Below, piece after piece: positions 1,746 through 12,476 of a DNA stretch of 12,480 bases (its first letter is position 1; each line of letters starts with the position of its first letter). The translations under genes and the position numbers were made by a program. The notes beneath the pieces are model-generated. The model was not told the DNA's origin, ran no database searches, and saw nothing but the letters and a program-made list of their open reading frames with translations. This DNA comes from a virus. Lineage: Duplodnaviria > Heunggongvirae > Uroviricota > Caudoviricetes. The stretch lies in IMG/VR virus record IMGVR_UViG_2548877011_000005; one strand, given 5' to 3'.

Positions 1746-2576
1746 ACCGGACTCCTCCTGCGATCCCTTCTGATACTGTCATCAGCATTACGTCATCCTC
1801 CGTCATGTCCGCCACATCCGGGGAAGCGGGGATAACTTCATTCCCGTCCGGGCCAAAGCGGACACCTCCGGCAAGCCCTGCCGCTTTCTGCATCAGCACA
1901 TCATCTTCAGGCTCTTCGTCAGCCTCGCGCCGGTTAAGCAGACTGAAATCCAGCGGATGCATATCCGGATCGCTGAAAAACAGGCTGAGCACGGTGTACG
2001 TCAGCCCGGAAAAGTGCATATCCAGCAGAACATCATGAAAATAATGGGTACTGTAAAAGCGGTGCCAGTCGGCATACTCCGTGGATGACATCCCGGCAAG
2101 CATGGCACGCCAGTCGGGTCGCCCCATCTCACGCGCCAGTTTCAGGGCAAAACTCAGCTCACCGTCGAACACTTTCCCGCAGAAACAGGCTCTGCAGGCC
2201 CGGCGTCCTCTGTCTGTTCAGGGGCATTATTCACCACAAACTCATACATACCGGACAGCCGGTACACCACGTTTTCAGCATGAGAAATTGCCTCCGTGGG
2301 CCAGGTGGTAAGCACTTCCTGCTCAATTTGTTTAACGGCTTCATTCATGGACGGCATCTGCGTCTTCTGCGGATGGTTATGCCACAGGGACATCGCCACC
2401 AGAAACGCGCCGGTTCTGATGGCGTCTTCCACAGTAAACTTCCGATTGCTGTCTGACTCCGCCTGTTCTGCCTGCCGTTTCATCAGGGCGAGATGCTCAA
2501 TACGCTGCAGGGCTGACAGTTCAGAAAGCGTGACGGTCACACCGTTATGTTCAAATGATTCGGTTTTCAGGAACAT
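1738..2576 (-). CDS. T: Tail assembly chaperone fusion gpG-T, made by programmed -1 frameshift at the slippery heptamer 2172-2178; the T part (1738-2172) has no start of its own
   Basis: Track ORF 1738..2172 (MFDGELSFALKLAREMGRPDW...) lies in the -1 frame relative to G and overlaps its 3' end. The heptamer G GGA AAG sits in G's zero frame exactly at the overlap. The arrangement matches the lambda G/GT frameshift. Confidence 0.8.
2154..2576 (-). CDS. G: Tail assembly chaperone gpG (140 aa)
   Basis: Track ORF with ATG at 2576-2574; GGAGAG Shine-Dalgarno upstream; lies after the V stop (2592-2594). Translation MFLKTESFEHNGVTVTLSELSALQRIEHLALMKRQ... matches lambda gpG from memory. Confidence 0.93.
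   Translation of the reverse strand: MFLKTESFEHNGVTVTLSELSALQRIEHLALMKRQAEQAESDSNRKFTVEDAIRTGAFLVAMSLWHNHPQKTQMPSMNEAVKQIEQEVLTTWPTEAISHAENVVYRLSGMYEFVVNNAPEQTEDAGPAEPVSAGKCSTVS
2172..2178 (-). other. Programmed -1 ribosomal frameshift slippery site GGGAAAG (X XXY YYZ)
   Basis: Plus-strand ctttccc at 2172-2178 is GGGAAAG on the minus strand. In the G frame the codons are GGA (2177-2175) and AAG (2174-2172); a -1 slip gives GGG AAA GTG TTC GAC, i.e. ...K V F D G E L S F, which is the start of the T ORF. Confidence 0.8.
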
Positions 2577-6180: not shown

Positions 6181-6528
6181 TTACGGCAGCGCCGCGTGAC
6201 TCAGGGCACTGCCGGCAAAGGCATTTGCCTTTTTGTGTTCATCCACACTTTCAGGCCAGCGGATTGCCTCCGTCGCAAAGGTCCCCGACTTGTAATAGGT
6301 CAGTACCGTCTCTGTGCCTTCAAGCGGCAGTACCAGTATGCCAACTGCACTACCGGCTTTCTGTCCGTCCCAGACCACCAGTTTCCCGCTGGCTTCATCC
6401 AGCATCAGGGGCGTCAGTGCCGGTGTTGCCGAGGAAATCCCGCTGCTGCCTGTGGCGGTATGAGCCGGATCATTACCGGCAAAAATACGTACTTCCGCAC
6501 GCTGTTCAGTGATGGTTTTCGTTACCAT
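6181..6528 (-). CDS. D: Head decoration protein gpD (115 aa)
   Basis: ATG at 6528-6526 with AGGAGG upstream (plus cctcct 6541-6546). Translation contains DPAHTATGSSG...TPLMLDEASGKLVVWDG...YYKSGTF...KANAFAG, matching lambda gpD motifs. Confidence 0.93.
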   Translation of the reverse strand: MVTKTITEQRAEVRIFAGNDPAHTATGSSGISSATPALTPLMLDEASGKLVVWDGQKAGSAVGILVLPLEGTETVLTYYKSGTFATEAIRWPESVDEHKKANAFAGSALSHAALP

Positions 6529-6564
6529 ATTGTAAAAACCTCCTGTTGATGGTCAGCACTGACT

Positions 6565-7167
6565 TCATGGCATAGCCATGAGCATTTTCACGTCCGCATC
6601 ACCGTCTGCTGACGTCTGTGGCACGCCACCCTGTACCGCTGCCGGTGAATGGTTCGCCATGATGCGTTCAAACAGGGCGGTTGTGGATGCAGAGACCGGT
6701 TCTGCCTTACCTGATCCCGCAGCCAGCACAGCCCGGGCGCTCTCCACAGTCATTCCCGGGCAGGCAGCCAGCTGTTCAGCCTGCGCCTCAGCCCCTTTTG
6801 CCTCATCCAGTGCCATGATCTGATCACGGAGTGAGGGTCCGGCATCCGCCTGCGGTGAAGCAGCCAGGATCGGGCGGGCTTTTTCCACCGTCATCTCCGG
6901 CATCGCCGCCAGCGTTGCCGCCAGTTGTTCACGACCGTTCGCTTCTTCACACGCCATAATGCGATCGGCTTCACTCTGCGTGGATGCCACCGGCTGCTGC
7001 GGTGCCGCCGCGGCCAGAATCGCCCGGGCCTGTTCAACGCTCATGCCCTGTTGTCCTGCCAGCATCGTGGCAAGCTGTTCACGTCCTTTCGCTTCCTGGC
7101 ATGTCAGGATCCCCATCACTCGCTGGTTCTCCTGCGCGGCGGCTTCCGTTGCAGTTAATTGCGGCAT
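6565..7167 (-). CDS. Nu3: Nested in-frame scaffolding protein (Nu3-like, 200 aa) from an internal start inside C
   Basis: In-frame ATG at 7167-7165 (Met302 of C) preceded by a strong Shine-Dalgarno, minus-strand CAGAGGAGGCACT ATG (plus cctcct 7172-7177). Lambda has the same arrangement: Nu3 shares frame and stop with the 3' part of C. Confidence 0.6.
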   Translation of the reverse strand: MPQLTATEAAAQENQRVMGILTCQEAKGREQLATMLAGQQGMSVEQARAILAAAAPQQPVASTQSEADRIMACEEANGREQLAATLAAMPEMTVEKARPILAASPQADAGPSLRDQIMALDEAKGAEAQAEQLAACPGMTVESARAVLAAGSGKAEPVSASTTALFERIMANHSPAAVQGGVPQTSADGDADVKMLMAMP

Positions 7168-8070
7168 AGTGCCTCCTCTGACATTACTGTTCAGCGCCGT
7201 GGCCATCACACTGATGGCATCCGACGCATTGACTAATTCATCCGCCAGCCCGGCATCAATGCCGGACTGACCTTCAAAAACGGCGGCCTCTGTTCCCGTG
7301 ACGGCATCAACAGACAGACCGGTAAACATCGCCACTTTTTCGGCAAACATCCGGCGCGCCGCATCAATGCGCTGCTGCATGTCCTGGCGAACCTCTGCCG
7401 GTAAGGCTTCAAACTGATTGCCATCCACCTTGTGCGCCCCTGAGTAAATCAGCGTGATATCCACACCGGCCTGCGCCAGATGACCGGCATAGCTGACATG
7501 GCTCATCATCACGCCAATGGAGCCGATACGGGATGTCTGGGTAACCAGCCGTCGGGAGCAGGCCGACGCCAGCAGCATGGCTGCAGAACAGGCCGTGTCA
7601 TTGCACAGTGCCCAGACCGGCTTCTGCTGACGGAGGCGGTAAATCATGTCAGCGCAGTCAAACGCGCCGGCGGCCTGCCCGCCCGGACTGTCAATGTCCA
7701 GCAGTACGCCCCGCACCTGGCTATCCGCCATTGCCTGCTGAAGACAGGCGACAATACCGTCATAGCCTGTCATTCCGGAAAATGGCCGCATACCCCCCAG
7801 CCGGTGCACCAGCGTGCCGGTCACCGGCAGTACAGCAATACCGTTCACCACCCTGTAAACACGGGCCGGTCGTTTACCTCCGGCCATGTACTCGTCCGTT
7901 TCAGCCAGCATTCCGGGAGCATCAAACTGTACCTGCTGTTGTGGTACCGAAAGACTTGCTGCCCCCATCTCGCGCCCGAGCGCGCAAAAGAAAACCCGCG
8001 CATAGGCGGGCTCCAGAAGCAGCGGTTCATTGAATGCTGCGGCAATAATGTGTGAAAGATTACGTCTCAC
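6565..8070 (-). CDS. C: Prohead protease / scaffold gpC (S49 ClpP/SppA-like peptidase domain, 501 aa), GTG start
   Basis: Track ORF starting at GTG 8070-8068, overlapping the B stop (8060-8062), with GAGGAG upstream. N-terminus MRRNLSHIIAAAFNEPLLLEPAYARVFFCAL matches lambda gpC; central region ...VWALCNDTACSAAMLLASACSRRLVTQTSRIGSIGVMMSH... is the S49 peptidase core. Confidence 0.92.
   Translation of the reverse strand: MRRNLSHIIAAAFNEPLLLEPAYARVFFCALGREMGAASLSVPQQQVQFDAPGMLAETDEYMAGGKRPARVYRVVNGIAVLPVTGTLVHRLGGMRPFSGMTGYDGIVACLQQAMADSQVRGVLLDIDSPGGQAAGAFDCADMIYRLRQQKPVWALCNDTACSAAMLLASACSRRLVTQTSRIGSIGVMMSHVSYAGHLAQAGVDITLIYSGAHKVDGNQFEALPAEVRQDMQQRIDAARRMFAEKVAMFTGLSVDAVTGTEAAVFEGQSGIDAGLADELVNASDAISVMATALNSNVRGGTMPQLTATEAAAQENQRVMGILTCQEAKGREQLATMLAGQQGMSVEQARAILAAAAPQQPVASTQSEADRIMACEEANGREQLAATLAAMPEMTVEKARPILAASPQADAGPSLRDQIMALDEAKGAEAQAEQLAACPGMTVESARAVLAAGSGKAEPVSASTTALFERIMANHSPAAVQGGVPQTSADGDADVKMLMAMP
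6709..7122 (-). repeat. Three tandem, diverged copies of a ~37-53 aa module (~111-159 bp) in the scaffold region of C/Nu3
   Basis: Protein copies: RVMGILTCQEAKGREQLATMLAGQQGMSVEQARAILAAAAPQ (from aa317), RIMACEEANGREQLAATLAAMPEMTVEKARPILAASPQ (aa370), IMALDEAKGAEAQAEQLAACPGMTVESARAVLAAGSG (aa418). DNA copies are visibly related at about 6730-6830, 6840-6965 and 7000-7120. Confidence 0.75.
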
Positions 8071-9652
8071 GGGGTGTTGTCTCCTCTTCCGGCCTGCGAC
8101 TCTCCGCTATCTGCTGCTGATACGCCTGCGCTATCCACACCGGACGTGAGAGTCCGGCTTTTTGCCGCTCTGCAGATTCCCTGACCTGCTGGCGGAAAAT
8201 GTCCTGATAATCCTCGCCCATCAGCGCCAGCTCTTTCTCATACGTGCTCAGTCCGGCCTCAATGCGCATCACCGATTCCTGAACCTCCTTGAGCCCGTCA
8301 ATGGCCATTCTTCCGGCACCAATCCACTCTGCCCGTGACCAGGCTGATCGCGCCTGATAAAAATCAAAACGCGCCCGTGGCGGACGGATAATCCCCCGAA
8401 GAAGTGCCTCTTCCAGCCAGCAGGAAAACATCTGCGTGGCCAGCCGGGCCGCAATAAATTTTCGCCGCCCCATAAAATAGCGCCACGACTCATTGGCAGA
8501 GGCCCTGGCACTTGAATAACTGACCTTCGAGTAATCACGGGACAACTGTTCGTAGGAAACGCCAAGACCGGCGGCGATATACCGCAGCAGCGCCTGTTCA
8601 AGCGCCGAAAATCCATTGTCTGAATCCTGCGCAGTCTGTAGTTTCAGATCATCCCCGGGGAAAAGGTGCGGAATTTTGACACCGCCCAGCGTCACGCTAT
8701 TCGTGTCATACCAGGTGGAGAACTTATCCAGAATATTAATAAGCGGATTATCCTTCTGCCCCTGCGGCGCACCGGCGATATATTCAAAGGCCTTTTCGGT
8801 ATCAAGTTCACTTTCAATCGTCGCTGCATACATCGCCTTCACTATGGCCGACTGAAGCTGTGTTGCCTGCAGGGAATCGAGCATCTTCAGCCGTTCCATG
8901 ACGCTGTAAAACTGATTAGCCCCACGGGTCTGCCCGTCCTCCACCGGCTCGAAAATATGCAGCATGGCCGGACGCCCGGTGGGAAGTTCACGCGGGATCC
9001 GTTCCCATCGTCCACTCCCGGAGCGAGGAAAATCATCCTCACAGATATGGTACGCAACGGCACGGCCATATCGATCGACCTCCACCCCGGCCCGCAGAAA
9101 ACGGTTCCCCATACCGTGTCCTGGCGTGTCCACCCGTTTCGGACTCACGGCTTTAAAACGCGTACGGAATAACTGCGTGGTTTCCGTATCCCAGACCGGC
9201 TGCACAAAGATTTCGCCGTTAAACGCATGAACGCCCACACCTTCACGGATAAATTCCGTGAACGTGCGTTTTCCTTCCACGTCGATCTCGCCAGACATCC
9301 CTTCTGCGTATTCTGACCAGGCCGCCTCCACCTCATCGACAAAACTTTTTGCCGCGGTCTCCCGCATCCCCAGCCAGCGCCAGTTCGGACGGTAGCTAAT
9401 CAGAAACATATGCCCGACAATGTGATCCTTATGCAGGGCCACCGCATTGGCCGCTATTCCGTTATTGCGCACCAGATCATCTGCACGGGCATTCCCCAGA
9501 CGCAACGCGGGCAGCAGGGCCGCATCGGCACTCTGCGCCGGTGGCAACCACTCTGCCATTTGCCCGCCAAATCCTGCACCGCCACCGTTGTAGCTGAGGC
9601 TCTCCCGAAGCGGAACGCCGTTCACATCAATCAGGACAGGCGTTCGTTTCAT
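8060..9652 (-). CDS. B: Portal protein gpB (530 aa)
   Basis: ATG at 9652-9650 overlaps the W stop (9651-9649) as ATGA. Size and position (between W and C) match lambda gpB; translation MKRTPVLIDVNGVPLRESLSYNGGGAGFGGQMAEW... is portal-like. Confidence 0.95.
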   Translation of the reverse strand: MKRTPVLIDVNGVPLRESLSYNGGGAGFGGQMAEWLPPAQSADAALLPALRLGNARADDLVRNNGIAANAVALHKDHIVGHMFLISYRPNWRWLGMRETAAKSFVDEVEAAWSEYAEGMSGEIDVEGKRTFTEFIREGVGVHAFNGEIFVQPVWDTETTQLFRTRFKAVSPKRVDTPGHGMGNRFLRAGVEVDRYGRAVAYHICEDDFPRSGSGRWERIPRELPTGRPAMLHIFEPVEDGQTRGANQFYSVMERLKMLDSLQATQLQSAIVKAMYAATIESELDTEKAFEYIAGAPQGQKDNPLINILDKFSTWYDTNSVTLGGVKIPHLFPGDDLKLQTAQDSDNGFSALEQALLRYIAAGLGVSYEQLSRDYSKVSYSSARASANESWRYFMGRRKFIAARLATQMFSCWLEEALLRGIIRPPRARFDFYQARSAWSRAEWIGAGRMAIDGLKEVQESVMRIEAGLSTYEKELALMGEDYQDIFRQQVRESAERQKAGLSRPVWIAQAYQQQIAESRRPEEETTPRET

Positions 9653-12464: not shown

Positions 12465-12476
12465 AGGTCGCCGCCC
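12465..12476 (-). other. cosN: 12-nt cohesive-end sequence GGGCGGCGACCT (minus-strand reading), the terminase nicking site
   Basis: Plus-strand aggtcgccgccc at 12465-12476 is the reverse complement of the lambda cohesive end GGGCGGCGACCT. The following minus-strand bases (CGCGGTTTTTCACTATTTATGAAAATTTTTCAGGG) stay close to the lambda left end as I recall it. Confidence 0.85.

Follow-up and report, generated by a model that had tools for sequence, protein, structure and literature searches.

The question raised by this locus is whether one head gene of a tailed-phage prophage encodes two proteins in a single frame, namely a full-length protease and a shorter scaffolding protein that starts at an internal codon with its own Shine-Dalgarno (SD) sequence. 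The window, i.e., the whole stretch of DNA that was analysed (12,480 nucleotides; IMG/VR virus record IMGVR_UViG_2548877011_000005), is, judged from its sequence, the late operon of an E. coli prophage that resembles phage 21. The following genes around the locus were taken from the ORF list.

12287-11739, minus strand: small terminase
11809-9839, minus strand: large terminase
9855-9649, minus strand: W-like joining protein
9652-8060, minus strand: portal
6528-6181, minus strand: decoration protein
6123-5095, minus strand: major capsid protein
downstream of the major capsid gene, minus strand: FI, FII, Z, U, V and G/T-like genes

The complete genome of phage 21 (OL657228.1) aligned, from the left end of the phage, to 97% of the 12.5-kb window with 94.6% identity, and this near-identity and collinearity with the late operon of phage 21 (Jouyvirus) place the head module of the window in that group. 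The order portal, protease/scaffold gene, decoration and major capsid was found in the ORFs of the window, in phage 21 and in the prophage of E. coli O103:H2 FWSEC0007, in which the 501-codon gene between portal and decoration genes is 99.9% identical to that of the window. The same gene has 98.7% nucleotide identity to the gene 5 CDS of phage 21, from which it differs only by ~1.3% point differences, and a match to it was found in 2032 of 5426 complete E. coli genomes (~37%). Because the left end of phage 21 maps to about position 12476, the window starts at the cos end of the prophage. Over the aligned part, phage 21 exceeds the window in length by ~556 bp, and an IS3-family element is found ~45 bp past the high end of the window in the E. 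coli O103:H2 genome. The heptamer GGGAAAG, which we take to be the lambda G/GT -1 frameshift heptamer, is present at 2172-2178 (minus strand) shortly before the G-like ORF (2576-2154) ends, and the T-like ORF (2172-1738) comes next; in the annotation of the closest RefSeq genome G and T are two separate proteins, without a G-T fusion.

The features of the protease/scaffold gene that bear on the question are as follows.

6565..8070, minus strand: complete head protease-scaffold gene, a homologue of lambda C corresponding to gene 5 of phage 21; 501 aa, starting with GTG (ORF list, translation, homology)
8080..8086, minus strand: GAGGAG(A), putative RBS for the 501-aa frame, ~10 nt before its GTG (sequence)
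7192..7842, minus strand: S49 (SppA/ClpP-like) serine peptidase domain, residues ~77-293 (Pfam and PDB matches)
7172..7178, minus strand: GAGGAGG, SD sequence of the nested gene, overlying Arg-Gly-Gly codons of the protease frame (sequence)
7165..7167, minus strand: internal in-frame ATG, Met302 of the protease and putative start of the nested scaffolding gene (sequence, alignment)
6565..7167, minus strand: scaffolding gene nested in the protease gene, counterpart of lambda Nu3 and of gene 6 in phage 21; 603 nt, 200 aa (homology, prior annotation)

At its GTG start (8070) the long gene shares 11 nt with the end of the portal gene, and its putative RBS, with a duplex energy of -9.1 kcal/mol, is labelled as an RBS also in the phage 21 records M81255.1 and OL657228.1. 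The 501-aa protein matched PHROG 53, head maturation protease (E = 2.7e-228), and the S49 peptidase that forms its first two thirds was found by Pfam PF01343 at residues 146-293 (E = 7.3e-35; 120.7 bits against a cut-off of 24.9) and by the SppA structures 3rst and 4kwb at residues 77-290 (E = 5e-16). Ser162, which is invariant in a 7-sequence alignment, is a candidate nucleophile of the S49 domain here; in B. subtilis SppA (3rst) it is matched by a Ser from the AASGG stretch, presumably the catalytic nucleophile of that enzyme.

On the minus strand the protease frame reads ...GTC AGA GGA GGC ACT ATG CCG..., with the 4-nt spacer CACT (7171-7168, minus strand) between GAGGAGG and ATG. Since (8070-7167)/3 = 301, the ATG at 7167 is codon 302 of the 501-codon ORF, and the frame opened there ends at TGA 6567-6565 (minus strand), a stop codon and frame common with the protease gene. 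An in-frame internal start with its own SD sequence is therefore present at the protease/scaffold junction (7178-7165, minus strand), and the coordinates and description given in an earlier note on this DNA are exact. That note had also judged the motif unlikely to arise by chance inside a coding region, and the judgement does not hold for the heptamer alone: the window has three copies of GAGGAGG where 1.6 would be expected, and at least three also turned up in 44 of 200 shuffled sequences, so GAGGAGG by itself is not statistically significant. It does hold for the signal as a whole, with its pairing energy, its position at the junction and its conservation among homologues. The pairing energy was obtained by scoring the 17 nt upstream of every minus-strand ATG, GTG and TTG in the window for pairing with the 3' end of 16S rRNA. 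The site at 7167 scored -12.0 kcal/mol, ranking first of 278 ATGs and second of 720 start-like codons, and none of the annotated gene starts in the window reached it, the strongest of them being that of the decoration gene (-11.0). Folding predictions for the mRNA near 7167 gave no strong structure (z = -0.85). With 4 nt the spacer is among the shortest usually seen, which is a point against initiation at 7167; on the balance of these data and of the comparisons given below, ribosomes probably do initiate there in this prophage.

The nested product might instead start elsewhere, for example at the GTG/ATG codons 318/319 (7119/7116) downstream of CAGGAG, which are the second-ranked in-frame sites at -7.4 kcal/mol; lambda records also place the nu3 start at different codons. 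The SD sequence of these sites is, however, 4.6 kcal/mol weaker than that of 7167 and spaced 9-12 nt from the codons, the sites lie inside the first repeat module of the product, and they are not the conserved top site across lineages, so that a start there is the least credible of the three alternatives that we considered.

The portal gene provided a control for such motifs. It contains an in-frame AAGGAGG (8290-8284, minus strand) 11 nt upstream of a GTG at 8272 (codon 461) and 14 nt upstream of an ATG (codon 462), and with -12.1 kcal/mol this SD-like motif is as strong as the SD sequence of the nested gene. In close relatives the same portal peptide, KEVQESVM, is encoded by AAGGAAGTC, which scores only -5.5. 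Since the motif has been lost in relatives through synonymous changes, we regarded it as a chance by-product of codons and used it as a negative control. A second nested gene at the portal site was rejected for the same lack of conservation.

For the corresponding analysis of the nested-gene signal, homologues were collected from 80 IMG/VR loci, from lambda, Gifsy-1 and phi80, and from phages of Aeromonas, Pseudomonas and Rhodobacter, and the count was made on 75 distinct full-length homologues with 29-99% identity and ~36 in-frame start-like codons each. Searching with the 200-aa product contributed little to this set; most of its matches were truncated at contig ends and carried the name "S49 family peptidase, partial". 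In 73 of the 75 homologues the best in-frame combination of SD sequence and start lies within four codons of the residue aligned with Met302. The two exceptions are homologue L061, in which the site in the Met302 column is second by 0.5 kcal/mol, and Aeromonas phage PhAER-1, in which the ATG is kept and the SD sequence is weak (-4.3 kcal/mol). The internal Met is conserved in all lineages examined and aligns with Met309 of lambda C, Met302 of Gifsy-1 and Met311 of phi80. The SD sequence is kept in 16 different nucleotide contexts. In most lineages it is written as Gly-Gly, where GGA-GGN gives GGAGG and the first Gly codon is always GGA; in a clade of 538-aa proteins it is encoded by Gln/Lys-Glu (CAGGAG or AAGGAG), and in the Rhodobacter and Pseudomonas phages it lies inside the Glu-rich peptides QENEP and EEVEP. 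Because the SD sequence survives while the encoded peptide changes, selection acts on the nucleotides.

This pattern bears directly on the possibility that there is no independent translation, the SD-like motif being a by-product of a conserved Gly-Gly hinge and the scaffold being the C-terminal domain of the 501-aa protein or a product of its self-cleavage. Gly-Gly does precede the Met in most lineages, most relatives are annotated as a protease-scaffold fusion without a nested gene, and the portal gene shows that in-frame SD-like motifs occur by chance. A hinge would leave unexplained, however, that the SD sequence is retained with peptides other than Gly-Gly (TQENTM, TKENAM, QENEPM, EEVEPM), that the first Gly codon is always the GGA that an SD sequence needs, and that the Met is found in every lineage examined; in lambda, moreover, genetics has defined C and Nu3 as separate products (Shaw & Murialdo, 1980, as cited in PMC8508860). 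We consider this alternative improbable, though the most serious of the three. The internal motif could also act mainly as a translational pause or coupling element, e.g., for folding of the protease domain, rather than as a start signal, and its place at the boundary of the folded S49 domain and the scaffold part would suit such a role. Pausing induced by SD sequences is itself disputed, and a pause element would explain neither the in-frame ATG that is invariant 4 nt downstream in all lineages nor the non-conservation of the SD-like motif in the portal gene; this explanation is still less probable than the hinge. All three alternatives taken together hold only a small share of the probability, since conservation at the nucleotide level and the invariant ATG argue against each of them. 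Very probably, then, the locus is the gene 5/gene 6 pair of phage 21 in the lambda C/Nu3 arrangement, with one late mRNA, one frame and two starts.

The nested product consists of three repeat modules and a tail, as listed below.

7003..7152, minus strand: repeat module 1, residues 307-356, overlapping the "Tri1 box" of M81255.1 (repeat HMM, BLASTP 54% to the lambda module, AlphaFold2)
6847..6981, minus strand: repeat module 2, residues 364-408, "Tri box" (repeat HMM, BLASTP, AlphaFold2)
6703..6840, minus strand: repeat module 3, residues 411-456, "Tri3 box" (repeat HMM, BLASTP, AlphaFold2)
6568..6690, minus strand: shared C-terminal tail, with predicted helix TALFERIMANHS (nested residues 160-172) followed by a low-confidence tail (alignment, AlphaFold2)

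The product matched two PHROG families, "head scaffolding protein" (PHROG 8399, E = 8.5e-36) and "capsid assembly protein" (PHROG 8940, E = 2.7e-31), and no Pfam family was found for the 200-aa sequence. The AlphaFold2 model, built on an 18-sequence alignment, has a mean pLDDT of 67.6 and a pTM of 0.28 and shows three similar helical modules (block-mean pLDDT ~72-84; ~80-84 for the helices of module 1) with low-confidence linkers between them. Because the model is thus beads on a string, the search with the whole structure was weak, and Foldseek against PDB gave no match with E < 1. The C-terminal tail aligns with the C-terminus of lambda Nu3/C (ALDRLM...) and may have a capsid-binding role. 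Since the DNA of the modules has diverged, with a mean column identity of 68% and with no array found by Tandem Repeats Finder in 6400-7300, the triplication is old rather than recent. Within the nested gene of phage 21, two "CII binding site" matches (TTGYNNNNNNTTGY) are marked on the opposite strand of OL657228.1 (locus L002, 2409-2422 and 2643-2656), and these are probably pattern matches only.

The number of copies of the ~45-aa module varies among lambda-like head modules whose order is otherwise collinear: one, two, three and four copies were found in 31, 2, 37 and 5 distinct sequences, respectively (e.g., loci L041, L052-L057 and L061), with one in lambda and phi80, three in the phage 21 and Gifsy-1 types, and four in the 538-aa clade. 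The function of the "Tri box" is listed as unknown in M81255.1. We offer, tentatively and as a rather unlikely conjecture, that the module could set the valency of the scaffold or its reach toward capsid or portal, in which case copy number would be an evolvable dial of procapsid assembly.

The lambda C/Nu3 arrangement, to which the earlier note had likened this locus, was recovered at each level of comparison. Lambda C has 54% amino acid identity to the full 501-aa protein, including its S49 domain; GGRM of lambda aligns with GGTM of the window, which brings Met309 of lambda to Met302 here. Codon 309 of lambda carries AGGAGG, 4 nt and ATG with the spacing seen at 7167, and its SD sequence (CAGGAGGGCGA-ATG, -10.8) is the strongest in-frame one in lambda C. 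The two pairs share in-frame nesting, a common C-terminus and an equal position in the head operon. The comparison of residues 302-501 with lambda Nu3 that had been proposed likewise gave BLASTP matches, with E = 6e-17, 1e-11 and 2e-9 for the three modules against the single lambda module, to which each ~45-aa module is 43-54% identical. Lambda differs in having a single module, and its start is followed by a long linker rich in Ser, Thr and Ala; the gene of the window has three modules and hardly any linker.

Because lambda records disagree on the start of nu3, the use of Met309 as a reference point rests on the SD analysis and on the purified gpNu3 protein (~13 kDa), which by N-terminal sequencing reportedly starts at Met309. 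The start is given at codon 239 in RefSeq NC_001416.1 and at codon 207 in OM418625.1; in the lambda loci the positions concerned are 2333 against 2543 in L003 (NC_001416.1) and 1404 in L011 (OM418625.1). The comparison of SD sequences and of conservation puts the lambda start homologous to phage 21 gene 6 at Met309, and not at the RefSeq codon 239, as far as the aligned sequences indicate. The codon-309 product of lambda has 131 aa, its sequence is present on 165 contigs of the protein collection, and the source names listed there give it as "hypothetical protein".

The nested gene is not new to the public databases. Among the features listed in M81255.1 ("Bacteriophage 21 head gene operon") are gene 5, the nested SD sequence as a putative RBS, gene 6 (603 nt, exactly as here) and the "Tri1 box", "Tri box" and "Tri3 box"; those in OL657228.1, the complete genome of 2022, include CPT_21_05 "capsid protease/scaffolding protein", CPT_21_06 "scaffolding protein" and the RBS of the latter. 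Phage 21 genes 5/6 thus have the same 501-aa CDS and nested 200-aa CDS, the RBS, the three Tri boxes, and the flanking portal, shp and major capsid genes; the GenBank features of phage 21 for the nested gene carry the mark "putative". Smith and Feiss reportedly published this annotation of a nested scaffold gene in phage 21 in 1993. With the nested CDS annotated in both records, and with 95 contigs in public protein databases carrying the exact 200-aa sequence, this feature counts as known. In Gifsy-1 of Salmonella, STM2605 is a 498-aa protein with 65% identity to the protein of the window, three modules, and the SD sequence CAGGAGG followed by CACT and ATG at codon 302; its nested gene has no CDS annotation, and the record carries the note "Contains: Scaffold protein GP6". 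As had been supposed, annotation pipelines can miss such a product: in RefSeq/PGAP, "S49 family peptidase" is the sole product given here in 30 of 30 sampled E. coli records and also in the closest genome. Because these sampled records give only the long product, the scaffolding protein is absent from their proteomes.

Citrobacter phage phiNP resembles the window in having an S49 protease after the portal gene, then a ~200-aa protein and then the decoration and capsid genes; it is unlike the window in that the protease and the downstream gene are separate and non-overlapping. In its locus (L010, 1498-2968) a related S49 head protease of 288 aa ends where the nested start would be, and a very acidic 200-aa gene starts 2 nt after the protease stop. 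In its layout, phiNP looks like an unfused version of the protease-then-scaffold order.

In lambda the C/Nu3 overlap has been established (Shaw & Murialdo, Nature 1980, as cited in PMC8508860), Nu3 is the scaffold and C the protease (PMC3224144), and the short product is separately translated and needed for procapsid assembly (Shaw & Murialdo, 1980; Ray & Murialdo, 1975; as cited in PMC3224144 and PMC8508860). By analogy, the pair in the window would work as follows. The GTG at 8070, in its weak context, would give the 501-aa protease, that is, the S49 domain and then the scaffold part, while the ATG at 7167 with its near-perfect SD sequence would give the 200-aa scaffold, identical to the C-terminal 200 residues of the protease. 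The internal start being the stronger, scaffold would be made in excess of protease, so that one mRNA would yield little protease-scaffold fusion and much free scaffold, as taken over from lambda. Through the common C-terminal part, with its three ~45-aa helical modules and tail, the protease may co-assemble with scaffold, portal and major capsid protein in the procapsid, where it would then degrade the scaffold and itself and thereby empty the shell for DNA packaging.

As a discovery the finding has little value, for the nested gene of phage 21 has long been annotated and the C/Nu3 overlap of lambda dates from 1980. Its practical value lies in annotation: the gene is carried by more than a third of complete E. 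coli genomes, and its short product is unlisted in the sampled RefSeq records. The conservation analysis supplies a rule for calling it, namely the top-ranked in-frame SD-ATG just after the S49 domain.
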